Both the position numbers and the translations under genes were made by a program. From an uncultured Planctomycetaceae bacterium (GTDB lineage: Bacteria > Planctomycetota > Phycisphaerae > UBA1845 > UTPLA1), in the NCBI GenBank assembly GCA_964581285.1, contig CAZONT010000001.1, forward strand, positions 1,450 through 59,909: DNA of 58,460 nt, given 5' to 3'. A model generated the notes under the pieces. It did no database searches, was not told the DNA's origin, and saw only the letters and a list, made by a program, of their open reading frames with translations. Of the stretch, positions 19,071 through 49,294 are shown one piece after another. Within the stretch, counting starts at the first letter, position 1. Every line of letters begins with the position of its first letter.

Positions 19071-19180
19071 GCAGCCATCGTATACCAATCGAGGGGCTGT
19101 TTCACTGAATCACGCTTCGTCGTATGGTATCGGCCGCGGCCCGACCGATGGCGTTGCGGGCCGTGACGGAAGAGACGCGG

Positions 19181-20413: not shown

Positions 20414-20418
20414 GGGTC

Positions 20419-21741
20419 CTACTCGCCGGTTGGCTCCGTGGGGTGCGGCGAAGACTGGTCCGACGCGGGGGCCGCATGCGGGGCCGGGGCCGGGTGAGGC
20501 GCGGGTGCGCCGCCGGATTCGGCGCCGCGCGAAGCCGACGCGACTGCCGGGCTGCCGCCGCCTTCCTTTACAAAAATGTAGTAGAGCTTGCCTTCGCTGT
20601 AGGTGAAGCCGGCCTGCTTTCCGGCTTCGTCGCCGACGCCGGTGAAGATGTCGCAGCGGCCGGCGGCGCGAATAGCGGAGCCGCGATCCTGGTCGAGGGC
20701 GAATCCGTTGTACTGGCGCGGATTCGAGCCGCCCTCGCCGGGCATGGAGGCGACCTGGATGAATGAGAGGCAGGCGCGGGGGAAGACGTCCTTGTCGGTT
20801 GCGATGCTGTAGGTGGGCGTCACCTTTTCGTTCAGGCACCCGAACGGCCCGCCGGGGGCCGGCTGGAAGAAGACGTACCGCGGATTGCGCCAGCAATAAG
20901 TGTCGATGTCTTCGGGGTGCTGGTGGAAGTACTCGATCATCGCATTGAGCGAGAGACTTTCCTTGGGAATCTTCCCGTCGGCGACGAGTTCCTTCGCGAT
21001 CGACTTGTACTCGTGGCCGTTGTTCGCGGCGTAGCCGATTTCGTAGATGCTGCGGTCGGCCATGCGAATCTGGCCGGAGCCCTGGACGGTGACGACGTAG
21101 GTCTGGAATCGATCGCCGAGCCAGACGAGTTCCTGGCCGGCCAGTCCGCCGCCGGATTCGATTTGCTCGCGTGTCTTCCACGGACCGCCGGCGGGATTTC
21201 CTTCGACGTCCTTGGCGAATCCCTTTGGCATTTTGTAGATCGGCGCGTTGAGAGTTGCAGTGCGGGTCTTGCTGCCGTCGAAAATGGGCGTGTAGTAGCC
21301 GGTGTAGAGGACGGTGCCGCGATCGTCGCAGCCGACCGACTGGTAGACGTCGAACTTGTCGCGGATGATCTGGTTCAGCTCTTCGGGGCTCTTGGCCTGG
21401 CTGAGCACTTCGCGGAAGAGGATCAGACTCGCGACGGCGCGGTCATGCGAGATGTCGCCGTAGGGGAAATAGCGCTGGGATGATTTCTTCGAAAGATAGT
21501 GGAGACTGCGGTCGATTGCTTCGCGCAGCTTGGTCGATTGCGAAGAGTAGAAGGCGGCGCCGAAGTCGGGGTACATCGAGGGATCGATCTTTCGCAGCGC
21601 CAGTGCGCCGGGCGGCAGGGGCTTGTCGTAATCCTTGCCGGCATCGGGCAGGGCGATCGGAATGGGCTCCGGTTTGGGGCAGCCGGCGATCAGTGCGACG
21701 AGCGCGAGTCCAGCAAATGTTCGGCGGTGAGCCTTCGACAT
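20419..21741 (-). CDS. mltA: Membrane-bound lytic murein transglycosylase A (MltA) lipoprotein with Pro/Ala/His-rich C-terminal tail
   Basis: Lipobox LALVALIAGC. MltA core ..YVVTVQGSGQIRMADRS.. and 3D domain ..FALDQDRGSAIRAAGRCDIFTGVGDEAG... ATG at 21741. Confidence 0.8.
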   Translation of the reverse strand: MSKAHRRTFAGLALVALIAGCPKPEPIPIALPDAGKDYDKPLPPGALALRKIDPSMYPDFGAAFYSSQSTKLREAIDRSLHYLSKKSSQRYFPYGDISHDRAVASLILFREVLSQAKSPEELNQIIRDKFDVYQSVGCDDRGTVLYTGYYTPIFDGSKTRTATLNAPIYKMPKGFAKDVEGNPAGGPWKTREQIESGGGLAGQELVWLGDRFQTYVVTVQGSGQIRMADRSIYEIGYAANNGHEYKSIAKELVADGKIPKESLSLNAMIEYFHQHPEDIDTYCWRNPRYVFFQPAPGGPFGCLNEKVTPTYSIATDKDVFPRACLSFIQVASMPGEGGSNPRQYNGFALDQDRGSAIRAAGRCDIFTGVGDEAGKQAGFTYSEGKLYYIFVKEGGGSPAVASASRGAESGGAPAPHPAPAPHAAPASDQSSPHPTEPTGE

Positions 21742-21819
21742 GATCCGACTCCTTTCGGATGACCCCGCGACGGACTCGTGAAGTGCGACGCGGGCTAACA
21801 ATCCTTTGGCGGGGAGTCT

Positions 21820-21862
21820 AACAAAAGAGCAGCGGCAGGCAACTCGGGTCACCTGCCGCTGC
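21820..21862 (-). terminator. Rho-independent terminator after the LTXXQ-protein gene
   Basis: Perfect 11-bp stem gcagcggcagg/cctgccgctgc (21829-21839 / 21852-21862) with a 12-nt loop, followed on the minus strand by UCUUUUGUU. Confidence 0.55.
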
Positions 21863-21899
21863 GGAAATGGCTTTGGTTTCCGGGAGGGATCCTGATCGT

Positions 21900-22532
21900 C
21901 TAGCCGCGACCGCCGCCGCCGCCCCCACGACCGCCCGGGCCGCCCCATTGCGGGGGCGTAATGCCGCGCTCCTTCATGCGTCCTTCGAGGGCCTGGCGGT
22001 AGGCCATGCGGCGAGCCCGCTCATCGGGGTTTCGCGACTCGGAGCGCGACTTGCGCTCTTCGCGGGAGGCATTGCCGCCTCCGAAGAGGTTGCGCATGCG
22101 TTCGCGAGCCTTTTCGCGGTCCTGCTCGGACATCTCGGTGCGGCGCTTCTCAAATTCCTTCATGCGCTCCTGCATTTCGTCGATTTCCTTGTCCAGAATT
22201 TCTTTCTTCTTTTCTGCGGAGGCCTTGAAGTACTCGTCCATTTCTTTGCGCTCGCGCTCCTCGCGCATCGCGCGCATGTTTTCCATGATCTGGCGGCGCT
22301 GATCGTCGGTGAGGTCTTCGCGCTCCATGACCTGTCGCATAGTCTCGAAACCGCGCTGCGGCGACTGGATTTCCTTGAGACTGGCGACCTGAAACTCCTT
22401 CGGAACTTCGACTTGTGGTTTCTCGGGTTCCGATTTCGACCGAGTCAGCCCCCAGACGGCCGCTCCGGCGCCGGTCATGCAGGCAACTGCGACAATGATC
22501 ATCTTTCGTGAACTCAAAAATGACGTTTCCAT
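21900..22532 (-). CDS. Secreted/anchored Lys/Glu-rich coiled-coil protein with LTXXQ motif (Spy/CpxP-like?)
   Basis: N-terminal hydrophobic segment IIVAVACMTGAGAAVWG. ..REDLTDDQRRQIMENMRAMREE... Gly/Arg tail. ATG at 22532. Confidence 0.5.
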   Translation of the reverse strand: METSFLSSRKMIIVAVACMTGAGAAVWGLTRSKSEPEKPQVEVPKEFQVASLKEIQSPQRGFETMRQVMEREDLTDDQRRQIMENMRAMREERERKEMDEYFKASAEKKKEILDKEIDEMQERMKEFEKRRTEMSEQDREKARERMRNLFGGGNASREERKSRSESRNPDERARRMAYRQALEGRMKERGITPPQWGGPGGRGGGGGGRG

Positions 22533-22545
22533 AGTTGGACCTCGC

Positions 22546-23136
22546 TCAGCGATTCTCAAAGTCGGTCACGTGACCGTCATAGTACAGGTATCGCCGGGCG
22601 CCTTCCTGGCCCGGGATGCCGTGGAAGTTGTTGTAGTCGCGCATGATCCAGATCGTCGATTCCTGGAGCTGGTCGCCGCTGCCCTGCTGGATGCGCTGCA
22701 CGACGTCTTTCATGGTTCGGCCGCCGAGGCGCGGCTGGGTTCGGTATTCGTAGCTGGATCGCTCGGACTCGAAGTAGCTCTTGCCGTTGTTTGGATCGTC
22801 GCGCGGCTCGCCGCCGAGGTCGTCGGGGCACTTGAAGGCCTTCTCATTCCCGACATGGTTTGCGAGGACGTCGGAGATGTAGATCGGCTCGGTGACATCG
22901 TCGACCGGCGCCGTTCCCATCGAGGGCATGAAGGAGGCGTAGGGGAAGATGTCGCCGCTGTCGCGCATGTAGGAGGAGAGTCCGAGTCCCATCTCGCGCA
23001 GATTGCTCGAACAGGCCGTGCGACGTGCGCGGGCCCGTGCGCCGGAGAGGGCGGGCATGAGAATGGCTACGAGCGATCCGATGATCGCCACGACCACCAG
23101 CAATTCGATCAGCGTGAAGCCGCGCTTGGCCGGCAT
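22546..23136 (-). CDS. DUF1559 / prepilin-type N-terminal cleavage-methylation domain protein (pseudopilin-like)
   Basis: [33 protein letters not shown] at 23136 with GAGGG SD. A perfect TATAAT on the minus strand at 23173-23178. Confidence 0.8.
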
Positions 23137-23352
23137 AGAACCCTCATTGGATCGATCAGACGGGCGATCTGTATTATAACGGCCGAATCCCACTGCACTC
23201 ACAGCGGCGCCGACAGGATCTGCTTGAGAGTATACGTTCGCGACTCCAACCAGGCCGCACTTCGCTCGGTCTCGTGGCAATGGGGGATGGCGACGCCAAG
23301 GAGGCCCAACGACCGAGGTGGTGAAATATTGGGCTTGCGCCGGCGGAGAACA

Positions 23353-26732: not shown

Positions 26733-27245
26733 ATGAAGAGCTTTCTGGTCGTCGCCGCAGACGGCAAACGATACGGACCGGCCGACGTGCCGACGCTGTT
26801 GCGTTGGATCCAAGAGGGGCGGCTGGTAGCGGGGACCGTGCTGGTCGATACGGAGAGCGGTGCGCAACAGAGCGCGTCGTCGGTGGGCGAGTTGCGCATG
26901 GCGTTCTTCGAGGCGTCGCCCGCACGACCGGCAGCGATCGATGCACTCCAGGCGACTCGGACGGCGTATCAACCTGCCGCTCCGGCCACGACGCCGCGGG
27001 CCGTTCCTGTCTCTCCGCTGGGAGTCGAGGTCAGCACGAAGAGCAAGGTCGTCGCCGGGTTGCTTGGGATTTTTCTGGGTGCGTGCGGGGCGCACCGGTT
27101 CTACCTGGGTTTTCCCGGCATCGGGATCATCATGATCCTGTCAAATTTCGCGTGTGGGATCGGCGTGATCTGGGGATTTGTCGAGGGGATCCTCTGCCTG
27201 GCGGGTGTGATGCGCGACAGCGAGGGTCGCCCGCTTCGCGATTGA
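26733..27245 (+). CDS. GYF_2-like N-terminal domain + C-terminal TM2 domain membrane protein
   Basis: ..DGKRYGPADVPTLLRWIQEGRLVAGTVLVD.. (GYF_2/DUF4339-like). ..AGLLGIFLGACGAHRFYLGFPGIGIIMIL..GVIWGFVEGILCL.. (TM2). Confidence 0.7.
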   Translation: MKSFLVVAADGKRYGPADVPTLLRWIQEGRLVAGTVLVDTESGAQQSASSVGELRMAFFEASPARPAAIDALQATRTAYQPAAPATTPRAVPVSPLGVEVSTKSKVVAGLLGIFLGACGAHRFYLGFPGIGIIMILSNFACGIGVIWGFVEGILCLAGVMRDSEGRPLRD

Positions 27246-27249
27246 TCCG

Positions 27250-29880
27250 TTACTTGCGACACTTATCGGCGAGCTCGAGCAGTCGCTCCTTCCACGGCGA
27301 TCCGCCGAGGTCGGGATGCCAGGCCCGCTCTGAATCGATGCCTCGTACGACCTCGTCACTGCGGCCGGCGTCGAGCTGCCATCGCAGCCAGTAGTAGCGC
27401 GCTTCCCAGTAGCAATCCGGCGACGTGTCACGCAGGGTGCGGTCTTCGAGCAGGCGGGCCCAGGCCTTTTCGGCGTCGCTGCGCTGGGCCGGCGTGGCCG
27501 TGTTCGAACGGGCAACCTGTTCGAGCGCTGTCGCACGATAACGGAGGTAGGCGTTGTTGCCGGGATGGGAATCGGTCAAGTCCGTGAGCAGCGGTAGAGC
27601 TTCGCTTCCGCGGCCGGCGTTGACGAGCATCCGGGCCATGCTGAACCGCACAATCGACACGTCGGCGGCCCGGGAGGGATCGGCCGTGATTGCGTCGAGG
27701 AGGCGTTGGACGATCGGCAGACTCTCGACGGCGAGGCGCCGTGCTTCGTCCGCGCGGCCGGCCAGCGAGCGCTGATCGACTTCGGCTTCCAATTCGGCCG
27801 CGGCAGCCACCAATCCGGCACCCGGCTCCATCGACTTTGCGTGATCCAGCAGGGCACGCGATGTCGCGTCGCCCGCGTCGTACTGTTTGAGTTCGCGGTG
27901 ACAGCGCAGGCGGATTGAAATTACCCGAACGACAATTCCGGGGGGGAGGCCTGTCAGATCAAGCGTTGCCAGACGCTTCAGGGCGTCGGCGTGTTGGCGG
28001 AGGCGGGGGCCGGCCATCAGCTCGGCAGAATTAATCGTTGCCTGGGCGAGAAGTTCTCGCTGCTCGGGTGACGAAGCGGCGGGCCGGAGCTGTTCCGCCA
28101 GATCGTCCCATTCGCGGACGAGCGCGCCGACGGTACGAGCGGCGTCGGCGGTCGAAAGTGTGGCGTCGCGCTGTTGCCATGCTGCCTGCCGGCAGCGGGC
28201 CGCGCCGAAGCGAGCCGCCCAGTATCGCGACGACGTCTTGGGGATTCGGGCGTAAGTCGCCTGGGCCTCATCGGCGCGGCCGGCACGCTCGAAGGCCGCA
28301 CCGGCCCGCAACACGAGTTCCTCGCTTGCGTTCGAGTCTTTTGTCTGGGCTGCGGCCTTGAGACTGATGGTCGCCAGTTCCAGTTCGTCCTCGCGGAGGG
28401 CCGAGGCCGCCACGATCGCACGCCAGGCATCGACCGCGTCCTCGACTGCGCGGCGGGCCAGGCCGGCATCCGACGCCTTGTCCGCCAGTTCGGCGAAAGC
28501 GAGCGCTGCCGGCCGCAGTTGGCCGGTTCTCCTCAGGCATTGAGCAAGCTCGAATCGTGCGGCGTCGCGCTCGGACGGGCTGGCAGCGTCCGGACGGTCG
28601 ATGAAGGCCTGCAACATGGTGGCGGCGCGGGCGTAGTCGCCGGTTGCGGCGAGCCGCCGTCCGAGCGCCAGCCGCTCGGTGGGAGACAGCGTCGCCGGGT
28701 TCGCATCGGCGGGGACGACCTGATTGAGGTAGACGTCGATGACGGCGGACCACGTTCCGCCGCGAGCGCGCTGAGCCATCAACGAGTCGAAGGCCTGCTG
28801 ACGCAGGGCGGCGGCCTGGGGTTCGTCGGACCCCTGCGATTGCAACAAGCGGTTGTACGCGGCCAGGACCGGCGCGAGCTGGAGATAGAAGCCGCCGGCG
28901 GCGGGCAGCTTCGAATCGGCTGTTTCGGCTGCGAGTTCGTCGAAGCTGCGGGCGGCTGCGGCAAAGTCACCGCGTTTCGTTGCCGTACGGCCGAGCTCGT
29001 ACTTCGCACGGGTTCGCAGTTCGCCGCTGGCGTTCGATCGGGTGATGCCCTCAAAGACGGCCAGGGCATCGTCGAGCCGGCTTGATTCACGAAACGCTAT
29101 TCCCGCACCGACGGCCGAACTCAGACGATCGTTCTGGTCGGTGCTTTCGCGTCCCACGCCGTCGAATCGTCGCAGGGCTTCGTTCAGGTCTTCGGCCCGC
29201 CAGGATTCTTTGGGTGAAGTTATCGTCGCGCGATAGACGAGGGCCCATGCGAGATTCAGCGAGCAGCGGCGGGCCACGGGGCCGACGGCGTCGGCGATGC
29301 CTTCCATCAGCAGCGGGTCTTCGTCCCGGGCCAGCAGCGTCGTGAACTCCTTGAGCGACGCATCGGCCTGACGATATTCGCGGATCGCGAGCGAAAGGCG
29401 CTGACCCAAGCGGGGCAGGGGCTGTCGAAGGCCGCTGAGGCGCTCGAATTCGTCCAGGTCGGCAGCGCACTGCTTCCGCAGAATCACGTCGGCCAACTCG
29501 ACGCGCCAACTTGCGATTGCAAACCGACGGCGACCACCGGCGGACCAGGCGGGGTCGTCCTGGACGGACAGGGACTGGCGGTAGGCGGCGACGGATTTCG
29601 AGAGGTCGGCTTCGCGGCGACCCGCATCGGAGTCCGCCTCGGCGGCGCGGGCAAAGGCACGCGCCACGAGAACTTGGTGGGCCGGCGTACCCTGCCGGAC
29701 AACTTCTTCGACGAGTTCGGGCATTCCCTCAGCGACCAGGGCTTCGGCCAGGGCGGCGTCGGCTCCCGGTAGCGCATCGCCGGCCGGACGATCTTGCGCC
29801 TCGGCCAAGGCGCACGTTGAGAACATGCACAGGCAAGCCACCGTTAGCCGTATGTTGTTTGGAAACCGGACGAGTGCCAC
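27250..29880 (-). CDS. Large secreted all-helical TPR-like repeat protein (876 aa)
   Basis: Signal peptide LCMFSTCALAEAQ. Ala/Leu/Arg-rich helical-hairpin periodicity throughout. Last gene of the exbBD operon. Confidence 0.6.
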   Translation of the reverse strand: MALVRFPNNIRLTVACLCMFSTCALAEAQDRPAGDALPGADAALAEALVAEGMPELVEEVVRQGTPAHQVLVARAFARAAEADSDAGRREADLSKSVAAYRQSLSVQDDPAWSAGGRRRFAIASWRVELADVILRKQCAADLDEFERLSGLRQPLPRLGQRLSLAIREYRQADASLKEFTTLLARDEDPLLMEGIADAVGPVARRCSLNLAWALVYRATITSPKESWRAEDLNEALRRFDGVGRESTDQNDRLSSAVGAGIAFRESSRLDDALAVFEGITRSNASGELRTRAKYELGRTATKRGDFAAAARSFDELAAETADSKLPAAGGFYLQLAPVLAAYNRLLQSQGSDEPQAAALRQQAFDSLMAQRARGGTWSAVIDVYLNQVVPADANPATLSPTERLALGRRLAATGDYARAATMLQAFIDRPDAASPSERDAARFELAQCLRRTGQLRPAALAFAELADKASDAGLARRAVEDAVDAWRAIVAASALREDELELATISLKAAAQTKDSNASEELVLRAGAAFERAGRADEAQATYARIPKTSSRYWAARFGAARCRQAAWQQRDATLSTADAARTVGALVREWDDLAEQLRPAASSPEQRELLAQATINSAELMAGPRLRQHADALKRLATLDLTGLPPGIVVRVISIRLRCHRELKQYDAGDATSRALLDHAKSMEPGAGLVAAAAELEAEVDQRSLAGRADEARRLAVESLPIVQRLLDAITADPSRAADVSIVRFSMARMLVNAGRGSEALPLLTDLTDSHPGNNAYLRYRATALEQVARSNTATPAQRSDAEKAWARLLEDRTLRDTSPDCYWEARYYWLRWQLDAGRSDEVVRGIDSERAWHPDLGGSPWKERLLELADKCRK

Positions 29881-29934
29881 CCGAACTCCTTTCGGGCCTG
29901 ATGTACGGACCGCGATCCATCGCGTCTGCCGAGA

Positions 29935-30411
29935 TTATGATCGGCTTGTGGTCGTTGTTCCAGCGACTTCTACGGCGCCAACCGCGAATTGCACGTTTCG
30001 GAACCCGGCGCGGACACAGGCGTCCAGCGTTGAAATCACGAACTGATACCGCACAGCGGGGGCTGCGGCGATGACGATGCGGCCCTGGGGATCAGCCCCC
30101 TGGCTAAGCTTTCGCTTGAGGAAGTCGCTGAGGGCATCGAATGAGTCGCTGGTCATGCCCTGGCCAGTCACCTCAATGCGGCAGCGGTCGGTGGACGTGC
30201 CCGGTGAGAGCGCAATGCGGACGCCGGGTGCAAAGGAAGGGGGGCCGGCGGCAGGTCCTGCGTCGGATGGGAGCCGGGTTGGCAGGACGCCTTCGCTTAT
30301 CGCAAAGCTCGTGCCCATCATGAAGAAGATCAGGATTACCATCACGACGTCAACGAGAGGCGCCAGATTAGGCGTCCCGCTTCGGGGCTGGAATCTCCTG
30401 AACGAGTACAC
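29935..30411 (-). CDS. exbD: ExbD/TolR-family biopolymer transport protein (paralog 2)
   Basis: ..NLAPLVDVVMVILIFFMM.. TM motif plus periplasmic domain. Starts immediately after the previous stop (0-nt gap). Confidence 0.85.
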   Translation of the reverse strand: MYSFRRFQPRSGTPNLAPLVDVVMVILIFFMMGTSFAISEGVLPTRLPSDAGPAAGPPSFAPGVRIALSPGTSTDRCRIEVTGQGMTSDSFDALSDFLKRKLSQGADPQGRIVIAAAPAVRYQFVISTLDACVRAGFRNVQFAVGAVEVAGTTTTSRS

Positions 30412-30849
30412 CTATTGGGCCTCCGGATCGCGGCCGCCCGCGGTTGCGAATGTCACATGGCCGATCCTGGCCCGGCTGCAAAGGAGCAGAATCGGCTCGA
30501 CGTGGCGGTATTCCAGTTGGCGGTCGGCACGGATGTAGCAGGAGACGGCCGGGTCACGAGCGGCCTCGCGATTCAGTCGTTCGCCCAAGTCGGCAATGGA
30601 TAGCGACTGCTCGCCAACGCGATATTCGGGAACGCCGGCCGCGCCGGCGACGTTGACGATGACGCGTCGCTCGGGTGATTTTGCCGCTTCGTGCTTTGCC
30701 GCGCTGGACTGCGGCAGGTCGACCCGCACGCGCTCGCGCTGGGCGAGCCGACCGGTCAGCATGAAGAAGATGATGAGACACATCATCACGTCGACGAGCG
30801 GTGCGAGGTTCAGATCGAACTCGACGGCCCCGCTTCGGCGGAAACGCAT
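30412..30849 (-). CDS. exbD: ExbD/TolR-family biopolymer transport protein (paralog 1)
   Basis: ..DLNLAPLVDVMMCLIIFFML.. plus periplasmic domain. Confidence 0.85.
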   Translation of the reverse strand: MRFRRSGAVEFDLNLAPLVDVMMCLIIFFMLTGRLAQRERVRVDLPQSSAAKHEAAKSPERRVIVNVAGAAGVPEYRVGEQSLSIADLGERLNREAARDPAVSCYIRADRQLEYRHVEPILLLCSRARIGHVTFATAGGRDPEAQ

Positions 30850-30864
30850 GATGGCTGCCCAATC

Positions 30865-31710
30865 CTATCCAATTCGCTCGGTCTTCTTGGGGGCGATGAA
30901 GACGCCCGAGCGCGGCGCAGCATCGGGTTCGACGCGCGGCGGCTTGATTGGCGTCAGACCCGAAGTGCTCGAGATTACCTGGAAGTGCTCGATGAGCTCG
31001 ATGGACTTCGCGGTCGCCTGGGTACTCAGGGAGTCAATGCGGTTGCGGCAGACGCCGTAGAAGCCGAGGGCGAGCACCGCCAGTGCCAGCCCCAGAAACG
31101 TGTTGACCAGTGCGAGTGAAATGCCGCCGGCAAGGTCTTCGGGCTTATAGGTGCCGTGAGTCTCCTGCATCTTGCCGAAGGCGCGGATCATGCCGAGGAC
31201 AGTGCCGAGCAGACCCATGAGCGGACCGAGATTCCCGAGGATGTGGAGGTATTCGGCGCGGCGCTGGAGGCGATTGTTCCAGGCGGAGGCCGCCTCCTCC
31301 GTCGCCTGGCGCATGGCTGCGAAGCCGAGCTTGCCCTGCCGCAGGCCGGCAAGGAGGGACTGGGCGAACATGGTGCGGCTCGTTTGCAACCGCGCGACGC
31401 ACTCCTTGAAGCGGCGGCTTTCGATGAGCTCACGGGCTTCGTCGATCTCGGCGTCCGGCAACATGGTCTTGCGGCGGACGGTCCGAAACTGTTCGACGAT
31501 GATCGCCACGGCGGCGATCGACATGACGGCGATGACAAGGCCGGGCAGTTCGGCGCCGCGCAGCAGGATCTGGAAGAAGCTCGGAGCTGCAGTGTTCCCG
31601 GTCGCGGCCTGTGCGAAGGCCGACTCGACCGCCGTCCCCACGATCAACACCATGATCCCCGCTGCGAAGTCGCGGGATATGCGAAGCGACATGCCGTCTT
31701 TCCGAAACAC
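30865..31710 (-). CDS. exbB: MotA/TolQ/ExbB proton-channel protein with N-terminal signal-like extension
   Basis: ..HILGNLGPLMGLLGTVLGMIRAF..GGISLALVNTFLGLALAV... GTG at 31710 or ATG at 31692. Confidence 0.85.
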   Translation of the reverse strand: MFRKDGMSLRISRDFAAGIMVLIVGTAVESAFAQAATGNTAAPSFFQILLRGAELPGLVIAVMSIAAVAIIVEQFRTVRRKTMLPDAEIDEARELIESRRFKECVARLQTSRTMFAQSLLAGLRQGKLGFAAMRQATEEAASAWNNRLQRRAEYLHILGNLGPLMGLLGTVLGMIRAFGKMQETHGTYKPEDLAGGISLALVNTFLGLALAVLALGFYGVCRNRIDSLSTQATAKSIELIEHFQVISSTSGLTPIKPPRVEPDAAPRSGVFIAPKKTERIG

Positions 31711-31716
31711 GATGCG

Positions 31717-32775
31717 CTACTCGTTTGCGCGGCTTTCAGCGATGTGTTTATACGTGCCGCCGCCAACCTCTGCAATCCGGCGGAGGATGGGGTTGGCGGA
31801 TTCGCCGCCGTCAAATGCGAAGAGAATCGTGTGGACGATCGGTGCGACGGCTTTGGCGCGATGTTGTTGCACCGCCTCGAGCACCTGCGAGTTCTGCTCT
31901 CCGAAGTCGCCGTCCGAAAGCAGGAACAGGACATCTGCATGCAGCGACAACCCCTGCCGTAACGCGTCGAGCGGTTGGGTCCGGCCGCCGGGCGACATGG
32001 CGCGGATCGCGTCAAACGCGCGGCGCTTGTTTTCGGCGGTTGCCGGCAGCAGCGTCGGCGAAAGCGACTGGGCTGGTCCTTCGGAAAACCAGATTACGTC
32101 GAAGCTCTGATGATCGTGCAACGAGCCGATCGCGCGAAGCAATTCGCGTTGAAGAAGGTGAAAGGTGTCGTGCATGGAGCCGGAGCGGTCGAGGACGTAG
32201 ACATACGACGAGGCCTGTTGCCCGGCGCCGACGCCCCACAGGCATCCGACTGCGCCGCCTGACGCCAGTTCGCGTTGTGCCGTGGGCGTACCGCCATTCG
32301 CTGCGCCGCCTCCGCCCGATCCAATGCCGATGATGTCGCTGCGACCCGCGAGTGTTCCCGCGCCGCCGATCGGTCCTTCCGCGCCGGCGACGATGGCCGG
32401 CACAGGCGTGCCGGGGGAGGCAGAGGCGGGCTCCGTGACTTCGCGGAGTCGGGTCATGGAGCGGAGATCGGGGATTTCGGTTTTCCGTGTTGCGATGTCC
32501 GGCGAGGCGGCGTCAGTCGCCGATTCGGTGATGACGCCGACTTCGAACTCGATCGTCCGCTCGGCCGGCGTCGTGCGGCCGCGGAGCATGAGCATTGCAG
32601 CAACGAGCAGAGCAGCGTGAAGCAGTACGCTGGTCACGACGGAAGGCACGCTGGCGACACTCGTGGGGGCCGTGTGGCCGCGCGACCGCAATGCGACTTC
32701 GGCCAGAGCCGCGGCATCCGGACTTGTCTCAGGAGTCGCGGCGGATGCGACGGAGCTTGCAGGGGCCCGCGACAT
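31717..32775 (-). CDS. Membrane-anchored von Willebrand factor A (vWA) protein with TonB/TolA-like SxxxH anchor helix
   Basis: Single TM VVTSVLLHAALLVAAMLML (S-x3-H), ~140-aa Pro/Ala/Gly-rich linker, then a vWA domain with MIDAS residues DRSGS..GGRTQ..LLSDGD. Gene starts 0 nt after the folD stop. Confidence 0.75.
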   Translation of the reverse strand: MSRAPASSVASAATPETSPDAAALAEVALRSRGHTAPTSVASVPSVVTSVLLHAALLVAAMLMLRGRTTPAERTIEFEVGVITESATDAASPDIATRKTEIPDLRSMTRLREVTEPASASPGTPVPAIVAGAEGPIGGAGTLAGRSDIIGIGSGGGGAANGGTPTAQRELASGGAVGCLWGVGAGQQASSYVYVLDRSGSMHDTFHLLQRELLRAIGSLHDHQSFDVIWFSEGPAQSLSPTLLPATAENKRRAFDAIRAMSPGGRTQPLDALRQGLSLHADVLFLLSDGDFGEQNSQVLEAVQQHRAKAVAPIVHTILFAFDGGESANPILRRIAEVGGGTYKHIAESRANE

Positions 32776-33639
32776 TCAGGTCCGAACCTCCCGCGCGGCT
32801 TTTGCGACGTTTGCCATCAGCATGGCGACGGTCAGCGGGCCCACTCCGCCCGGTACCGGCGTGATCCAGCTCGCCACGGACGCCGCTTCGGTGTAGCGCA
32901 CGTCGCCGACGGTTGAGGGGCGGCCGTCCGGACCGCCGATCCGGTTGGTTCCGACGTCGATCACGATCGCGTCGGGCTTGATGTGCTCCGCGCCGATGAG
33001 GCCCGGTCGACCGATGGCAACGGCCAAAACGTCCGCCTGACGCGTCTGCGCTGCGAGATCGCGGGTGCGACTGTGACAGTGCGTCACGGTGGCGTTTGCC
33101 GCCAGCAACATCGCTGCGAGTGGCTTGCCGACGATGTTGCTTCGGCCGACGACGACGGCGTGCTTGCCAGTGAGATCGATGCCTGTTGAACGAATGCACT
33201 CGAAGGCCGCGGCGGCGGTGCAGGGCGGCAACGCATCGCGGCCCATGACGAGGCGTCCGAGGTTGGCCGGGGAGACGCCTTCCACGTCTTTCTCGGGTGC
33301 GATTCGCTGCTGGAGGTCGGCGGGGTCGATAGCGGCCGGCGTCGGCTCGAATACCAGAATGCCGCTGATGTCGGCGTCGTTGTTGAGGGCATCGATCATG
33401 GCGATCGCATGCGCGATGGTCGCGTCGGCCGGTAGTTTCAGTAATCGATGGTCAATACCCAGGCGCGACGCCTCGCGCGCCTGGGCGGCGGCGTAGGAAT
33501 GAGCAGCGGGGTCGTCGCCGATCAGGAGCGCGGCGAGCACGACCGACGATTGCCGGCTCGTCAGTTCGGCCACGTCGCGCATGATGCGCTGCCGGAGATC
33601 GTCTGCGAGTCGCTTGCCATCGATGATCCGAGCAGCCAT
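32776..33639 (-). CDS. folD: Bifunctional 5,10-methylene-tetrahydrofolate dehydrogenase/cyclohydrolase
   Basis: MAARIIDGKRLADDLR.., ..VVGRSNIVGKPLAMLL.., ..ITPVPGGVGPLTVAML.. canonical FolD motifs. Confidence 0.9.
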   Translation of the reverse strand: MAARIIDGKRLADDLRQRIMRDVAELTSRQSSVVLAALLIGDDPAAHSYAAAQAREASRLGIDHRLLKLPADATIAHAIAMIDALNNDADISGILVFEPTPAAIDPADLQQRIAPEKDVEGVSPANLGRLVMGRDALPPCTAAAAFECIRSTGIDLTGKHAVVVGRSNIVGKPLAAMLLAANATVTHCHSRTRDLAAQTRQADVLAVAIGRPGLIGAEHIKPDAIVIDVGTNRIGGPDGRPSTVGDVRYTEAASVASWITPVPGGVGPLTVAMLMANVAKAAREVRT

Positions 33640-33644
33640 GGCGG

Positions 33645-34676
33645 TTACTTGGGTTTCGTTGTTGATGTCAAAGAGTCGGCGTAACGCTTGAGCGTCGCCG
33701 CCAGTCGATCATCGGTGATATCGAACGTTCGTTCAAATATCTCGCTGCGCTCCCGGGCGGTGAGTCCGCCGCGTCGAAGTGCGCGGATGCAGTCTCCCAT
33801 CGACTTTGCCTTTTCCTTGACGGCCCAATGTGTGAGCAGCCAGGCCTGCGCGTAGGCCGTTGCGGATGCGGGCTGGCCGGGTTTGAAGACGCCATCGTCG
33901 GACAGGAGCCGGCGCCATGGCAGCAGTTGCCCGGCTTTCGCGGCGATGAGGTAGTCGTTGAGCCGAAGTTCGTTGATGCCGAGCGTGCCAAGGGAGAGCG
34001 GATCGATCGGAACCTCGAACTGGCTCGCCAACCCCTCGCCGAGCCATGCCGGTTGCGTCGCCGTTCTAGGCAAGACGCCAAATGCCGAAAGCGCGGCGTG
34101 GGCGACTTCGTGTTGGACGGTCGTGCAGAAGATCTGCTCTTCGAGTTGATCGAGTTTCGCAAATGCTTCTTCGCCCTGTTTCAGGATTGCAGCGCGTCGG
34201 GCGGATTCGCCGGCGTCGGCTGTGCTGCCCAGTGCCCGGATCGGGTTAACGAGTCGGCTGATTTCCGATCTTTTTTCGGGAATCACGCCGACTCTCGTGA
34301 AGTCGAGCAGGACAACTCTTTCGGCGTCCGGGTCGTAGAAGCCATAGAGGTCTGTTGTGGCCGTGAAGCCCACGCCGTTCGCGTAGTTTTGAAAGCCGCT
34401 TGGATCGTCGAAGACGGAAACCATAATGGGATCACGTGGCCGGGTGGTTGCGACTTCGAGCCGGTTCGCCAGAGAGTACACAGCTCCGTACGTTGCCTCC
34501 ATTCGGTTGAGCAAACTGCCCGGGCCTTGCCGGTTTGCGAGGGTCGCTTCCTTCGGCACGATGACGAAATGCGGAGTCTGTGGATAGAGACTCCGCTCTT
34601 CCCCCCCGGTTTGGGCAGATGCGAGGAGGGCTGCGAACAACAGGCACGCCGAAGTCGGAAGAATCTTGCGCGGCAT
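33645..34676 (-). CDS. DUF1570-family secreted protein (HExxH-containing, putative metallopeptidase-like)
   Basis: Signal peptide CLLFAALLASAQ. ..TTVQHEVAHAAL.. Planctomycete-typical family. Assignment from memory of the family, not a search. Confidence 0.55.
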   Translation of the reverse strand: MPRKILPTSACLLFAALLASAQTGGEERSLYPQTPHFVIVPKEATLANRQGPGSLLNRMEATYGAVYSLANRLEVATTRPRDPIMVSVFDDPSGFQNYANGVGFTATTDLYGFYDPDAERVVLLDFTRVGVIPEKRSEISRLVNPIRALGSTADAGESARRAAILKQGEEAFAKLDQLEEQIFCTTVQHEVAHAALSAFGVLPRTATQPAWLGEGLASQFEVPIDPLSLGTLGINELRLNDYLIAAKAGQLLPWRRLLSDDGVFKPGQPASATAYAQAWLLTHWAVKEKAKSMGDCIRALRRGGLTARERSEIFERTFDITDDRLAATLKRYADSLTSTTKPK

Positions 34677-35752: not shown

Positions 35753-38700
35753 TCACAACTCTCGCCCGTGCCACATGCGATAGAGAGCCGGCAGGACGAC
35801 GAGCGTCAACACCGTGCTGGAAACGATGCCGCCGACAACGACCGTAGCCAGCGGGCGCTGCACCTCGGCGCCCGTTCCGGTCGCCAGCGCCATCGGCACG
35901 AACCCCAGGGCCGCAACGAGCGCGGTCATCAAGACCGGGCGGAGTCGCGTGAGCGAGCCGTTGATGATCGCTCCATCCACGTCCTGTCCCTGTTCGCGCA
36001 GATGGTTGATGAACGTAATCATCACAAGTCCATTGAGAACGGCGACGCCGGACAGGGCGATGAAGCCGACCGCCGCCGAGATCGAAAACGGCATGTCGCG
36101 CAACCACAGCGAAACGATGCCTCCCGTGAGGGCGAGGGGGACGCCGGTGAAGACCAACAACGCATACTTCATTGAATGAAAGGTGCCGAAGAGCAGAACA
36201 AAGATCAGGAAGAGGCAGATCGGCACGACGACGAGCAAACGTCGCCGGGCGGCGATCAGATTCTCGAACTGGCCGCCCCAGGAGATCCAGGCGCCCGGCG
36301 TCAGCTTGACCTCCGCGTCGATCCTCCGCTGCGCCTCGGCGACGAACGAGCCGATATCCCGATCGCGAACGTTGCACTGTACTACGACGCGTCGCTTGCC
36401 ATCCTCCCGACTGATTTGGTTCGGACCCTCCTCGATTCGAATCGTGGCGACTTCGCTCAGAGGGATAAACCTGCCGCGAACGCGGGCGTCAACTTCGTTG
36501 TTCCCGGATTGATGCCGCGCGTCGCCGGGCTCGCGCCGGGGCAACGGGATTGGGAGATTGCGGATCGCCTCGGGGTTCTTTCGAACGTTTTCGGGAAGAC
36601 GTACGACCACGTGAAAGCGACGATCGCCCTGGAAGACCAGTCCCGCCTCGCGGCCGCCGATCGCGATTGCGACGACGTCTTGAACGTCGGCCACGTTCAG
36701 GCCGTACCGCGCGAGCGCCGCGCGATCGATCTCGACGCTCAACACGGGCAGTCCGCTCGTTTGCTCGACCTTGACGTCCGCCGAACCGCGAACGTCTTTG
36801 AGAATGCGGGCGATCGCGCCGGCGGGCGGCTCCATCTGTTCGACGTCGTCTCCGAATACCTTCACCGCAACGTCGCCGCGAACGCCGGCGATCAGCTCGT
36901 TGAAGCGCATCTGAATCGGCTGCGTGAACTCATAATTGTTTCCGGGCAGTGCCTGGACCGCGGACTCGATCCGCCGGACGAGGTCGAGCTTTGACTCGGA
37001 TGGATTCGGCCACTCGGGCCGCGGCTTGAGGATCACAAACGTGTCGGAGACGTTCGGCGGCATCGGATCGGATGCCATTTCGGCCGTTCCGGTCTTCGAG
37101 AACGCGAATGCCACCTCCGGGAAACGGGAGACGGCTTTCTCGACTTCGAACTGCATGTGCGACGACTGCGTCAGCGATGTGCTTGGAATACGGATTGCGT
37201 GCAGCGCGATATCTCGCTCGTCAAGGGTCGGAACGAACTCGTCCCCGAGCGTGAAGAAGAGGCCGAGCGATGCCGCAAACGCCACGACCGCCAACACGAA
37301 TACCGTCTTCGGGATTCGAATTGCGAGGCGCACCGTCGGCTGGTAGGCCTGTTTGACCCATCGGACGAGGAAATTCTCGCGCTCCCGTACTCGCCCCGTA
37401 ATCCCGATCGCGACCATCGCGGGGATAAACGTCAGCGAGAGGATGAAGGCGGCCGCGAGGGCGAAAATCACCGTCATGGCCATCGGGTGGAACATCTTTC
37501 CCTCGATGCCGGTGAGGGCGAGGATCGGGAAGTAGACGATGATGATGATTGCTTCGCCGAACGCGGTCGCGCTGCGAACCTCCTTACTCGCAGCCAGCAC
37601 GACTTCGAGGCGCTCGGCGAGCGTGAGCTTCCGGCCCAGTTCGTGTTGGCGTTCGGCGAGCAAGCGCAGACAGTTTTCAACAATGATGACCGCCCCATCG
37701 ACGATGAGGCCAAAGTCGATGGCCCCCAGACTCATCAGATTTCCGCTGACGCGTGTCTGCACCATCCCAATCGCCGTCAGCAGCATGGAGAGCGGAATCG
37801 CAAGTGCGGTGATTGCCGCGGCGCGGATGTTTCCAAGCATCAGAAACAGGATCACGATGACGAGAATCGCCCCTTCGGCCAGGTTCGTGCTGACGGTCTG
37901 GATCGTCGCATCCACGAGCTTCGTTCGATTCAGCACGGTCTTGGCATGAATGTCGGGCGGCAGTCCCCTGTTGATCTCCCGCAGCTTCGCATCGACGGCC
38001 GCCGAGACCGTCCGGCTGTTGGCACCAATCAGCATGAACGCAGTGCCAACGACGACCTCGTTCCCGTTCTCGCTGGCGCTGCCCGTTCGAAGCTCCCTTC
38101 CAATCCGAACGTCCGCCACGTTGCGGACGTAGATCGGCGTTCCGTCCTCGACACCGAGTACGATGTTTGCGATCTCGTCGTGGCCCCGAATCCTCCCCGG
38201 GGCTCGGACGACGTACGCCTCTCCCTCGTGCTCGATGTAGCCGGCTCCGACGCTGGCATTGTTCCGCTCCAGGGCGTCGATGACATCCTGAAACGTCAGT
38301 CCATAGGAGATCAGCTTCATCGCGTCGGGCTCGACGTGATACTGCTTGACGTATCCGCCGATCGCGTCGACGCCGGCCACATCCTTCACGCCCTTGAGTT
38401 GCGGGCGGATGATCCAGTCCTGCACGGTCCGCAGATAGGCCGCCTTCTCCAGCGGAGTCGTCAACCGCTCGCCCTCCGGCGTGAGGTATGCCCCATCGGG
38501 TTGCCAGCCGGCCCGGCCATCGACGATCGTCGCGCCCTTACCGTCCGGGTGAACGTACTCGACCGTCCACATGTAGACCTCGCCCAAACCAGTCGAGATC
38601 GCACCCATCTTCGGCTCGGCCCCGGGCGGAAGGTTCTCGCGGGCCTCCTGCAGACGCTCGTTGACCTGCTGCCGCGCAAAATAGATGCTCACGTCATCGT

Positions 38701-38992
38701 CGAAGATGGCCGTCACCTGCGAAAAGCCGTTGCGCGAGAGCGATCGGGTGGATTGCAATCCGGGAATGCCGGCCAAGGCGGTTTCAATCGGGAAGGTAAT
38801 CTGCTTCTCGACCTCGAGCGGCGACAGGGCCGGATAGACGGTATTGATCTGAACCTGGTTGTTTGTGATGTCCGGCACTGCATCGATCGGCAATCGCCGG
38901 AGCGAATAGGCCCCGCCGATCGCCGCGACGATGGTCAACAGCACCACGAGATAGCGGTGTTGGATTGAGAATTGAAGGACGCGTTCAAGCAT
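35753..38992 (-). CDS. czcA: Heavy-metal efflux RND pump, CzcA/CusA family
   Basis: 1079 aa with 12-TM RND architecture. N-terminus MLERVLQFSIQHRYLVVLL.. and conserved HME-RND blocks. Confidence 0.9.
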   Translation of the reverse strand: MLERVLQFSIQHRYLVVLLTIVAAIGGAYSLRRLPIDAVPDITNNQVQINTVYPALSPLEVEKQITFPIETALAGIPGLQSTRSLSRNGFSQVTAIFDDDVSIYFARQQVNERLQEARENLPPGAEPKMGAISTGLGEVYMWTVEYVHPDGKGATIVDGRAGWQPDGAYLTPEGERLTTPLEKAAYLRTVQDWIIRPQLKGVKDVAGVDAIGGYVKQYHVEPDAMKLISYGLTFQDVIDALERNNASVGAGYIEHEGEAYVVRAPGRIRGHDEIANIVLGVEDGTPIYVRNVADVRIGRELRTGSASENGNEVVVGTAFMLIGANSRTVSAAVDAKLREINRGLPPDIHAKTVLNRTKLVDATIQTVSTNLAEGAILVIVILFLMLGNIRAAAITALAIPLSMLLTAIGMVQTRVSGNLMSLGAIDFGLIVDGAVIIVENCLRLLAERQHELGRKLTLAERLEVVLAASKEVRSATAFGEAIIIIVYFPILALTGIEGKMFHPMAMTVIFALAAAFILSLTFIPAMVAIGITGRVRERENFLVRWVKQAYQPTVRLAIRIPKTVFVLAVVAFAASLGLFFTLGDEFVPTLDERDIALHAIRIPSTSLTQSSHMQFEVEKAVSRFPEVAFAFSKTGTAEMASDPMPPNVSDTFVILKPRPEWPNPSESKLDLVRRIESAVQALPGNNYEFTQPIQMRFNELIAGVRGDVAVKVFGDDVEQMEPPAGAIARILKDVRGSADVKVEQTSGLPVLSVEIDRAALARYGLNVADVQDVVAIAIGGREAGLVFQGDRRFHVVVRLPENVRKNPEAIRNLPIPLPRREPGDARHQSGNNEVDARVRGRFIPLSEVATIRIEEGPNQISREDGKRRVVVQCNVRDRDIGSFVAEAQRRIDAEVKLTPGAWISWGGQFENLIAARRRLLVVVPICLFLIFVLLFGTFHSMKYALLVFTGVPLALTGGIVSLWLRDMPFSISAAVGFIALSGVAVLNGLVMITFINHLREQGQDVDGAIINGSLTRLRPVLMTALVAALGFVPMALATGTGAEVQRPLATVVVGGIVSSTVLTLVVLPALYRMWHGREL

Positions 38993-39021
38993 GGGCTTGA
39001 CCCTCTTCGGAAAGGTTGGAA

Positions 39022-40293
39022 TCAGTGCACATGCTCTGCCGCCGCCTTGCCGAACTCGGCCTTCAAGATGAACGAGCCGCTCGCCACATATTCATCGCCC
39101 GCGTTCAAGCCCGAGAGGATTTCGACTTGCCGGTCGCTCCTTCGACCGATCGTCACCGCGCGCTTTTCGAAGCCGTCGCGTACTCTGACGAACACCACCG
39201 GCTGATTGTCGATTGTCTGTAACGCCGAATCGGGCACGACGATCGGCGCATCGGCCGTCGAAACCGCGACATCGGCGAAGACGAACATGCCCGGCAGCCA
39301 GCGTCGGTCCGGGTTGGAGAGGACGACGCGGGCCTGCCCGGTTCGCGTGGCTTCGTCAATCCGAGGGCTTACATACTCGACCCGGCCGCGTTGAGCCGAC
39401 GCCTTCCCTGCAGCGCGGATGTCGACCGAAATGCCAACGGTGACATGGGGGACGTCCTGCTGATACACGGTCACCTGGACCCATACGACGGACAGGTCCG
39501 CCAGGACGAAACACGTTTTTTCAGGGTTGACCACCTCGCCGAGCGTCAGGTGCTTCTCGATCACGGTGCCGGCGAACGGCGCACGGATCTCATAGCGTGA
39601 AAAGTCGGTGTCCTTCTCGCGATGCAGCGTCGCGACCTGGTCCTCCGAGAGGCCGAGGGCGTGGAGTTTTGCCTCCGCCGTGCGGTGCTCGATGTCCATC
39701 TCCGCGAGCGTTTGCCTGGCCCGAAGCAGCTCCTCCTCCGGCGCAATCTTCTGCGAGAAGAGTTTCTCAATCCGTTTCAGATTCGCCTCGGCCAACTCGT
39801 GCCGCGACGACGCCGCGAGGTCTGACGCCTTTGCGTCGGCCAATTCCCGGCTGTCGAGGATTGCCAGGACCTCGCCGGGCGTAACGGTGTCGCCGAGGTT
39901 CTTGCGCACCTCACGCACCATTCCGGTTACGCGGGGCACGATGTGCGCGACGCGGTCCGCGTCCAGCTGCACTTCGCCTGGAAGCGTGGCGGTTTGTTCG
40001 ATCTTTCCGGGACCGGCCGTCGCGATCTCGATGCCGTGCGTCTTGATCGCTTCGGGAGAGAGGTGGACCAAGCCGTCCTCGTGCTCCTTGTGCTCGCTGC
40101 GCTCGTGCTCCTGATCGCCAGGCGCATGCACATGATCTGCACTCTCGCCGTGTTCGTCTTTCGCGGAAGCAGCCGGCCGAGTACCCCGTTCCTTCATCCA
40201 TTGCCGCATGCCGAGCGCGCCCGCCGCACCTCCGAACAGGAGCGCGACTGTTACGACGGCAAGCGATCTACTCCTGGCGACTGTCAATGACAC
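39022..40293 (-). CDS. czcB: Efflux RND periplasmic adaptor (CzcB/CusB-type MFP) with His/Glu-rich N-terminal tract
   Basis: Anchor LAVVTVALLFGG. DEHGESADHVHAPGDQEHERSEHKEHEDGLVH. HlyD-like lipoyl and barrel motifs. Confidence 0.85.
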   Translation of the reverse strand: MSLTVARSRSLAVVTVALLFGGAAGALGMRQWMKERGTRPAASAKDEHGESADHVHAPGDQEHERSEHKEHEDGLVHLSPEAIKTHGIEIATAGPGKIEQTATLPGEVQLDADRVAHIVPRVTGMVREVRKNLGDTVTPGEVLAILDSRELADAKASDLAASSRHELAEANLKRIEKLFSQKIAPEEELLRARQTLAEMDIEHRTAEAKLHALGLSEDQVATLHREKDTDFSRYEIRAPFAGTVIEKHLTLGEVVNPEKTCFVLADLSVVWVQVTVYQQDVPHVTVGISVDIRAAGKASAQRGRVEYVSPRIDEATRTGQARVVLSNPDRRWLPGMFVFADVAVSTADAPIVVPDSALQTIDNQPVVFVRVRDGFEKRAVTIGRRSDRQVEILSGLNAGDEYVASGSFILKAEFGKAAAEHVH

Positions 40294-40305
40294 GGAATCA
40301 CTCCT

Positions 40306-40515
40306 TCAGAACCCGTACGCCGCGAACGCGGATCGGGCGACGCTCGCTGCAAAGTCAACATATTGGGTGGCGGCCTGCGCGATCGCTGACAGGCCGGCCT
40401 CCACGACTGTCTGCTGCGCTTTCGGTGTGCAGCCCGTGAAGCATGCCGGAAGGAGCAGTGGTGCCACGAGGAAAAATGTTCGCCTCGCGATGGGCCCTCT
40501 ATCGCGTCGCATCAT
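40306..40515 (-). CDS. Candidate 69-aa small lipoprotein wedged between czcC and czcB
   Basis: ATGA overlap with the czcC stop and 12 nt before the czcB start. Arg-rich n-region, hydrophobic core and lipobox-like LLPAC/FTGC. High GC3. Confidence 0.45.
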   Translation of the reverse strand: MMRRDRGPIARRTFFLVAPLLLPACFTGCTPKAQQTVVEAGLSAIAQAATQYVDFAASVARSAFAAYGF

Positions 40516-42077: not shown

Positions 42078-42169
42078 GAAACTCGACTCCACAGACCGAC
42101 GAGGCGCAAACAGCGACGAACGGCACCGCTCGTCGCCGGCCGATGATCAGGAATTGATGTGGAGTTGGA

Positions 42170-45755: not shown

Positions 45756-45763
45756 GCTTGTAC

Positions 45764-48285: not shown

Positions 48286-48296
48286 GCGTTTGCCTC

Positions 48297-48340
48297 AAAA
48301 AAATCGGCAAGGTCGCGGCCGGATGTCCGGGACCTTGCCG
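48297..48340 (-). terminator. Intrinsic terminator/attenuator hairpin between iscA and hscB
   Basis: 10-bp stem 48305-48314/48331-48340 (cggcaaggtc/gaccttgccg) plus an inner ccgg/ccgg pairing, followed on the minus strand by AUUUUUUUG (48297-48304). Confidence 0.5.
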
Positions 48341-48394
48341 TCGTCCGACTTTGCCGCCGAGCGGCCGCCGGGCGCACCGACCGAAAGCGCCGTG

Positions 48395-48724: not shown

Positions 48725-48812
48725 GACTCAACGCTCCTTGTCTTTCTCTCGAAATGCGGTCGCGGCTTTCCGTGGCCGCCCGCGTCCTGTCGGATTCTAG
48801 TGCGATCCCGTC

Positions 48813-49226: not shown

Positions 49227-49294
49227 TCTTCTAGCTCCTGAACGGCCCCAAACCGGCCGTTAACGTATCCCACAAACTCGAAAGCGGGCGAACC

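Follow-up and report, generated by a model that had tools for sequence, protein, structure and literature searches.

A candidate proton-motive-force transducer operon with a vWA head in the place of TonB or TolA in a phycisphaeral planctomycete

By what arm might a planctomycete pass the energy of its inner membrane to the outer envelope, when the genes of an ExbB/ExbD motor stand in an operon that contains neither tonB nor tolA? The question is raised by a stretch of 58,460 nucleotides (hereafter the window; positions 1,450 to 59,909 of contig CAZONT010000001.1, assembly GCA_964581285.1) from an uncultured Planctomycetaceae bacterium of the class Phycisphaerae, in which five minus-strand open reading frames (ORFs), running from 32775 to 27250, encode in this order a vWA (von Willebrand factor A) protein, an ExbB, two ExbD and a large tetratricopeptide repeat (TPR) protein. 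Here, I argue that this operon is probably a force-transduction system of the TonB/TolA class, driven by the proton-motive force (PMF), in which the TonB_C or TolA head is replaced by a vWA domain with a metal-ion-dependent adhesion site (MIDAS).

The intergenic gaps of the operon measure 6, 15, 0 and 54 nt, and its first gene abuts folD, itself preceded by a gene of the DUF1570 family (Table 1); as no nucleotide separates the stop codon of folD from the start of the vWA gene, transcription may read through from folD. The ORF coordinates thus agree with an earlier note on this DNA, which had described five same-strand genes so spaced and so flanked, and the ExbB and ExbD motifs that it quoted are found verbatim in proteins that Pfam assigns to MotA_ExbB, ExbD and ExbD. 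It had also seen no TonB_C or TolA gene, no TonB-dependent receptor, no TolB and no Pal in the 58 kb; a Pfam scan of the some 50 further ORFs that cover the rest of the window likewise returned none of these, nor OmpA, and TonB_C (PF03544) matches none of the five operon proteins at E ≤ 0.1.

The candidate for the missing arm is the vWA protein, of which 62 homologues, mostly from Phycisphaerae, were collected and which was modelled as a single chain with AlphaFold2 (AF2) using 53 homologues. A cytoplasmic N-terminus is followed by a single transmembrane helix, a disordered linker and a C-terminal vWA domain and, as far as can be judged from its sequence and the model, the protein is built on the plan of TonB. 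The helix, VPSVVTSVLLHAALLVAAMLMLRG, is devoid of Asp and is therefore a TonB-type anchor, not a trans-pore helix. It carries the SxxxH signature of motor docking in TonB and TolA, and both residues, S49 and H53, are invariant across an alignment of 44 deliberately diverse sequences (A4; 24-44% identity to the window protein). A control count over membrane-like segments found SxxxH in 79 of the 82 anchor helices of the vWA family and in 3 of the 653 segments contributed by the remaining ORFs of these loci. When 1.84 billion cluster representatives were searched exhaustively, 1900 proteins were returned at E ≤ 1e-10, and among the best 150 of these 1900 matches the motif lies in a hydrophobic segment of 88 of the 145 newly returned proteins.

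Beyond the helix, the predicted local distance difference test score (pLDDT) of the model falls below 50 over aa 78-173 and is low across most of 67-173, in keeping with a flexible linker; the distance from the end of the helix to the MIDAS Asp has a family median of 115 residues. Within the linker, a stretch just after the helix (TIEFEVGVITE) is a candidate for the 'motor box' strand, and a conserved motif (GG.VG.LWGVG; alignments A1 and A2) stands ahead of the vWA domain. The head itself is recognised by Pfam as VWA_3 (7.6e-10) and VWA_2 (2.8e-06) at aa 192-343, and its MIDAS site is complete, being made up of D196-R-S198-G-S200, T266 and D288; of these residues D196, T266 and D288 are invariant in A4, S198 and S200 in the closer alignments A1 and A2. 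The best Foldseek matches of the domain (E down to 6e-12) are ITIH1/4, CMG2/ANTXR2, alpha2delta-1 and CLCA1, its nearest solved relatives, all of which bind ligands via the metal site. A TonB_C or TolA domain hidden in the vWA or the TPR protein was looked for with Pfam and NCBIfam (E ≤ 0.1), in the AF2 models and with Foldseek, and none was found; with TonB_C absent, there is no beta-strand pairing with a TonB box either.

As for the motor, Pfam assigns ExbB to MotA_ExbB (PF01618; 2.8e-26, 92.2 bits) and the two ExbD paralogs to ExbD (PF02472; 6.8e-23 and 7.4e-18 for the first and the second), while the nearest NCBIfam models of the motor proteins are TolQ/TolR and ExbB/ExbD, with scores far below every equivalog cut-off. 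The pore-lining Thr residues of ExbB are kept, GLLGTVLG and LVNTFLG aligning with the equivalents of ExbB T148 and T181, and so they are, both of them, in 67 of 68 ExbB proteins of the family. In each ExbD the transmembrane Asp aligns with D25 of ExbD (PFIDV) and D23 of TolR (PLLDV), and the P-x-x-D motif is present at both ExbD positions in most related loci. Moreover, in tblastn comparisons the first ExbD gene of a related locus best matches ExbD1 of the window and the second ExbD2, so that the two form separate orthologous groups; such position-specific matches argue for an old duplication and for a heterodimer.

The association of these genes extends well beyond the window. A scan of one genome per species yielded 465 confirmed relatives, nearly all from metagenome-assembled genomes of Phycisphaerae or other Planctomycetota, and 79 loci were kept for neighbourhood analysis. 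The operon is also carried by complete Phycisphaerae genomes, for example CP030884.1, JACKHI010000001.1 and Phycisphaera mikurensis. Of the 59 loci whose sequence extends 4.5 kb or more beyond the vWA gene on the downstream side, 56 encode ExbB and 52 have at least two ExbD genes; where 3.2 kb or more is available after the last ExbD (48 loci), an ORF of 640-1070 aa directly follows it in 45. Two layouts can be told apart. In type 1 (the window, L001-L035, L041 and L046) the vWA gene directly precedes exbB; in type 2 (most of L036-L079) an extra gene of 350-420 aa stands between them, at 31 loci. Gene co-linearity is strict over 24-90% identity, and an unbiased clustering of all ORFs from the 79 loci left only vWA, ExbB, ExbD and the big TPR protein common to both layouts. 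The recurrence of the set in dozens of genomes is, by all appearances, more than chance. At two loci, L039 and L057, the vWA protein is without SxxxH, and there ExbB and ExbD are missing as well.

A TPR gene of some 900 aa is the usual last member of the set. The large relatives of the window TPR protein form one homologous cluster that spans 50 loci and both layouts, and homologues of at least 800 aa align with it from end to end in either. TPR_16 and TPR_6 score above the Pfam cut-offs, the leader (aa 1-26, ending in ALA before an E) resembles a signal peptide, and in the AF2 model (pLDDT 85.9) residues 39 to 875 make up one long array of helical repeats. No sequence match was found in the Protein Data Bank, and the fold search returned only generic long TPR solenoids, with TM-scores of about 0.2. 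Three more specific identities were considered for it and set aside: CpoB/YbgF (TIGR02795), which reaches 40.8 bits against a cut-off of 90.1, covers only aa 266-340 of 876 and amounts to ordinary TPR similarity, and BatC (NF047507, 1.2e-3) and PorW, whose matches are below the cut-offs.

Most of what the earlier note had proposed stands in the light of these data. A membrane-anchored vWA protein does occupy the slot of tonB or tolA, as the S49xxxH53 anchor, the disordered linker and the intact MIDAS head bear out; the TPR protein called 'secreted all-helical' has its leader and its modelled helices; and, as far as architecture is concerned, the idea of a PMF motor that delivers energy to a vWA head is supported. 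Two of the checks that it had suggested, a hidden TonB_C or TolA domain in the vWA or TPR protein and synteny with exbB-exbD-exbD-TPR in related genomes, both turned out in its favour, the former finding none and the latter being conserved.

From this architecture the following course of events may be inferred. ExbB would form a pentameric, stator-like ring, and the two ExbD paralogs would sit as a heterodimer in its pore, where they would carry the proton-binding Asp. The vWA protein would dock on the outer face of the ring by its one transmembrane helix, via S49 and H53, and a short strand just after the helix would probably be fed to the periplasmic domains of ExbD. Proton flow through ExbB5-ExbD1/ExbD2 would then pull on the flexible linker of 111 residues, and the vWA head, gripping the acidic side chain (carboxylate) of a partner via the MIDAS metal, would pass the pull on to a target in the outer envelope; the exported TPR superhelix may be a fixed partner, whether as a scaffold, a regulator or a ligand. 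In other proteins, such as integrins, MIDAS bonds bear load, and the MIDAS domain of Mdn1 reportedly forms catch bonds (PMC8837202). With the Ton system (ExbB-ExbD-TonB), and especially with operons of the form tonB-exbB-exbD1-exbD2, the window operon has in common the motor families, the ExbD Asp, the Thr ring of ExbB, an N-terminal SxxxH anchor with a periplasm-spanning linker, and the transducer gene in first position; it differs in that the head is a MIDAS vWA domain and not TonB_C, in that no TonB-dependent transporter is encoded nearby, and in that ExbB lacks an equivalent of Glu176.

A system of this kind has already been described. In an in silico study, Williams-Jones et al. (Mol Biol Evol 2025, PMC12204202) report vWA force transducers with a TolQR-like motor, namely proteins tethered to the inner membrane that combine an SHLS helix, a disordered linker bearing a motor box and, at the C-terminus, a vWA domain; members come from Proteobacteria, Planctomycetes, Verrucomicrobia, Bacteroidetes and Rhodothermaeota. 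Their type locus is that of Tichowtungia aerotolerans, and in their AlphaFold3 model of other family members the conserved His is placed at the docking site of TonB/TolA. A literature search brought up no further paper on such transducers. The window locus is a further example of the system described in 2025, and the idea is not new; the remark in the earlier note that it knew of no described system with this composition is out of date, and because composition and reading are both found in PMC12204202, its inference is to be regarded as an independent rediscovery. Shared with the published systems are the Ser/His inner-membrane helix, the disordered linker of about 100 residues and the vWA C-terminal domain, together with adjacent genes for a TolQ-like protein, two heterologous TolR-like proteins and an uncharacterised TPR protein. 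The order differs, vWA-exbB-exbD-exbD-TPR here as against a vWA gene downstream of TPR-tolQ-tolR-tolR in the layout given there for the Planctomycetes-Verrucomicrobia-Chlamydiae (PVC) group, as does the number of transducer genes, one in the window and two in Tichowtungia as in type-2 loci. The same article sets out a TolQ-only family, in which a membrane-tethered vWA protein is likewise encoded next to a TolQ-like gene, in this case with no tolR or exbD and with a trans-pore helix that bears the proton-binding Asp. The window protein, which has a His and no Asp in its helix and two ExbD genes beside it, is for these reasons not of the trans-pore type.

Several observations weigh against a TonB/TolA-class transducer with a vWA head, or at least against its being a close copy of the known ones. 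Of the SHLS motif the window protein keeps only the S and the H, its residues at the other two positions being A60 (for L) and L64 (for S); only about a third of the family retains L and S/T there. The candidate motor-box strand (IEFEVGVI; consensus EFxAxxV) is conserved in the close type-1 subfamily only, and the segment is not predicted as a strand in the AF2 monomer model. In the third transmembrane segment of ExbB, the Glu of E. coli ExbB E176 and TolQ E173 is replaced by Leu (GGISLALV; the longer segment is given in Table 1); of 68 vWA-linked ExbB homologues (L001-L078), 59 have Leu, Ile or Val at this position and one has Glu, which sets the motor apart from canonical ExbB and TolQ and suggests that the ExbB of vWA loci makes up a distinct motor branch. 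The loss of the Glu176 equivalent is a detail added here, not met in the accessible text of PMC12204202. Its authors state that no phenotype of a deletion is on record for the vWA transducers, and give their function as unknown. Furthermore, the ORF clustering over the 79 loci put no outer-membrane partner into the conserved core, and the absence of TonB is established within the limits of the 58-kb window.

If the operon is indeed a transducer of this class, the question becomes what it pulls on; import of large substrates ranks first among the roles considered, Tol-like tethering or division second by a small margin, and adhesion or gliding third. As a tentative first choice, the machine may power the import of polysaccharides or glycoproteins across the outer membrane, which would make it the PVC-group counterpart of TonB-dependent 'selfish' uptake. 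In planctomycetes, the uptake of dextran and of green fluorescent protein into the periplasm is sensitive to carbonyl cyanide m-chlorophenyl hydrazone (CCCP) and takes a route that is unknown (PMC5394234), and labelled chondroitin sulphate is taken up by a mechanism called 'analogous but unknown' (PMC5520146); planctomycetes also fall outside the phyla with TonB detected earlier, and they are absent from the Ton catalogue of PMC12204202. Against such a role, no outer-membrane channel, glycan-binding protein or carbohydrate-active enzyme is conserved beside the operon at the 79 loci, and the dextran work was done in Planctomycetia, not in Phycisphaerae.

A lead, not a result, comes from the verrucomicrobium Akkermansia, where the mucin-transport gene mul1A of the mucin-utilisation locus MUL1, said to be Sus-like, is Amuc_0544 and where Amuc_0546, two genes from mul1A, is listed as a 'biopolymer' transporter; disruption of mul1A is reported to abolish the use and uptake of mucin. 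A profile search directed toward Verrucomicrobia and Akkermansia returned only Phycisphaerae-type proteins. Drawn together, these leads would make vWA-ExbB-ExbD-ExbD-TPR the missing energiser of outer-membrane import in the PVC group, the Phycisphaerae counterpart of Akkermansia MUL1 and the engine of the CCCP-sensitive, TonB-independent uptake of intact polysaccharides and of proteins into the planctomycete periplasm, with a MIDAS catch-bond head in place of TonB-box pairing; taken as a whole, this proposal is unlikely.

Alternatively, and somewhat doubtfully, the operon may be a functional replacement of Tol-Pal (TolQ-TolR-TolA-TolB-Pal-CpoB), the vWA head gripping a partner in the outer membrane or the wall so as to tether or invaginate the outer membrane, and the TPR protein playing a coordinating role like that of CpoB. 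Planctomycetes are reported to be without Pal and no Tol-Pal locus is catalogued for them; both systems combine a motor with an anchored transducer, the TPR gene closes the operon at its 3' end as cpoB does, and the sub-threshold YbgF match may be counted on the same side. So may the neighbourhood, with folD adjacent in 18 of 35 type-1 loci and MreC and MltA in the window, a housekeeping setting which suggests a core rather than an accessory function. On the other hand, there is no C-terminal domain of TolA, and genes for TolB, Pal and OmpA-like proteins are found neither in the window nor in the conserved core of the 79 loci; the TPR protein, at 876 aa against about 260 aa, exceeds CpoB more than threefold in size, has generic fold matches, and stays below the cut-off of the YbgF model.

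Far less probable is a part in surface adhesion or gliding, a suggestion found in PMC12204202, along the lines of the Agl-Glt machinery of Myxococcus with its vWA adhesin CglB. The two have in common the TolQR-class motor, a pair of TolR-like subunits that differ from each other, and a load-bearing binder in the form of a MIDAS vWA module. The Myxococcus vWA protein is, however, a separate outer-membrane lipoprotein, coupled through TonB-like Glt proteins, and not an inner-membrane transducer, whereas in the window protein the TonB-like anchor and the vWA domain share one chain; nor are Glt-like genes conserved around the 79 loci.

A different kind of objection is that motor and vWA protein are uncoupled: ExbB-ExbD-ExbD would serve a canonical TonB or TolA whose gene lies elsewhere, with the genes for the vWA and TPR proteins as mere neighbours, for example of the BatA/BatC type. 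In other bacteria tonB is often unlinked from exbBD, the Bat operons (BatA/BatB-BatC, of the aerotolerance operon of Bacteroides and Leptospira) encode membrane-anchored vWA proteins together with TPR proteins, and a weak BatC match was noted above. This, too, is rather improbable, for SxxxH is nearly universal in the anchors of the family and specific to them, vWA genes without it have no ExbBD neighbours, and co-linearity is strict over the range of identities given above; Bat operons, moreover, comprise a MoxR-type ATPase and DUF58 and no ExbBD, whereas Pfam found neither a MoxR AAA+ ATPase nor a DUF58 gene among the window ORFs. Lastly, an anti-phage defence system of the Zorya kind, whose MotAB-like motor belongs to the same 5:2 superfamily, is effectively excluded by PADLOC, which gave nothing for four of the five operon proteins and only a marginal 15-bit JukB match for ExbB, and by a genomic context that is a conserved housekeeping setting and not a defence island.

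Turning to the variation of the operon among loci, folD lies upstream of the vWA gene at L001, L004-L006, L009, L010, L012, L013, L015-L020, L026, L031, L034 and L035, and DUF1570 precedes it in 9-10 of these 18. Between folD and vWA, 15 loci carry an additional, divergent TPR gene (about 400 aa), which the window is without. The extra gene of type 2 encodes a TPR_21-like protein in L053 and has no Pfam match in L075; type-2 loci often have two tandem SxxxH-vWA genes, as does the published Tichowtungia locus. In 13-15 type-1 loci the TPR gene has two further genes behind it on the same strand. The first encodes about 300 aa (in L005 with a lipoprotein-like leader and a C-terminal membrane helix), the second a secreted protein of about 850 aa; Pfam recognises neither, neither has a homologue in the window, and they are possible accessory parts. 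The family member P0090 carries in residues 1-32, ahead of the SxxxH helix, a cytoplasmic CxxC...CxxC zinc-ribbon, on account of which it was named 'phage FluMu protein Com' by the Joint Genome Institute (JGI); in such transducers the cytoplasmic N-terminus may be a module that varies and that possibly has a regulatory role.

As to the surroundings of the operon, a TM2-domain gene converges on the TPR gene with 4 nt between the stop codons, and the unit therefore ends at 27250. No terminator-like hairpin was detected between these two genes; the promoter and terminator scan was uninformative, with 10 terminator-like sites as against 6.4 ± 2.4 in shuffled sequences, and gave 0 sites between the five operon genes. 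The G+C content of the window is 61-67%. Its other products include glycosyltransferases and an ABC-2 exporter as well as the efflux, iron-sulfur, peroxidase and envelope genes of Table 1, the outer-membrane efflux protein (OEP) of the resistance-nodulation-division (RND) operon being the sole recognised outer-membrane protein gene.

Table 1. Coordinates of the operon, of the parts of its products, of neighbouring genes and of selected related loci
Feature	Position	Strand	Basis or remark
vWA force-transducer gene, 352 aa	31717..32775	-	ORF; Pfam VWA_3/VWA_2; AF2 domain plan
Predicted transmembrane anchor helix, aa 43-66, VPSVVTSVLLHAALLVAAMLMLRG	32578..32649	-	AF2 helix, pLDDT up to 96
SxxxH motif, S49-V-L-L-H53	32617..32631	-	translation; conservation
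Linker, 111 residues, aa 67-177, rich in G/A/T/P	32245..32577	-	AF2 disorder; composition
vWA domain, aa 178-350	31726..32244	-	AF2 pLDDT >90; Foldseek
MIDAS stretch D196 to S200	32176-32190	-
ExbB/TolQ-type pentameric motor subunit (putative), 281 aa	30865..31710	-	Pfam MotA_ExbB; alignment to E. coli TolQ/ExbB structures
ExbB segment with Glu replaced by Leu, GGISLALVNTFLG	within 30865-31710	-
ExbD/TolR paralog 1, 145 aa	30412..30849	-	Pfam ExbD; transmembrane Asp in LAPLVDVMM
ExbD/TolR paralog 2, 158 aa	29935..30411	-	Pfam ExbD; transmembrane Asp in LAPLVDVVM
Exported TPR superhelix (predicted), 876 aa	27250..29880	-	Pfam TPR_16/TPR_6; AF2 all-alpha model
Signal-peptide-like leader of the TPR protein	29803-29880	-
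folD	32776-33639	-	Pfam-confirmed; 0 nt to vWA start
DUF1570 gene	33645-34676	-	Pfam-confirmed; 5 nt upstream of folD
TM2-domain membrane protein	26733-27245	+	converges on TPR gene
Envelope genes near the operon	18102-23280		MreC; MltA-like lytic transglycosylase with 3D domain; pseudopilin-like (N_methyl + DUF1559)
RND efflux operon	35753-42092	-	AcrB-family pump of 1079 aa; HlyD_D23 membrane-fusion protein; TolC-type OEP
Complete ISC iron-sulfur operon	45309-50994	-	Rrf2/IscR, IscS, IscU, IscA, HscB, HscA, 2Fe-2S ferredoxin
Animal-haem-peroxidase domain protein, 686 aa, fused to SdrD B-like domain	53742-55802	-	E 1e-153
First gene after the TPR gene, type-1 example	L005:13358-14209
Second gene after the TPR gene, type-1 example	L005:14286-16790
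Type-2 example	L053:260-7534
Type-2 example	L075:7608-14415
Type-2 example	L036:1640-11312

To sum up, as the idea has already been published, the value of the window lies in a clean and compact member of the family: its locus is a minimal form, with a single transducer and no extra genes, and offers a good experimental template with defined residues to mutate (H53, D196/S198/S200/T266/D288, the Asp residues of ExbD and the Leu of ExbB). Ton and Tol were for long the sole known single-arm routes by which proton energy is carried from the inner membrane to the outer envelope of Gram-negative bacteria, and a third type of head, a metal-dependent vWA binder, would mean a different grip and probably different targets. 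Given that planctomycetes are reported without Pal and that no Ton system is catalogued for them, the operon may be their main, or even their only, link of this class, and as such it bears on how macromolecules are imported without TonB-dependent transporters and how the outer membrane is handled without Tol-Pal.

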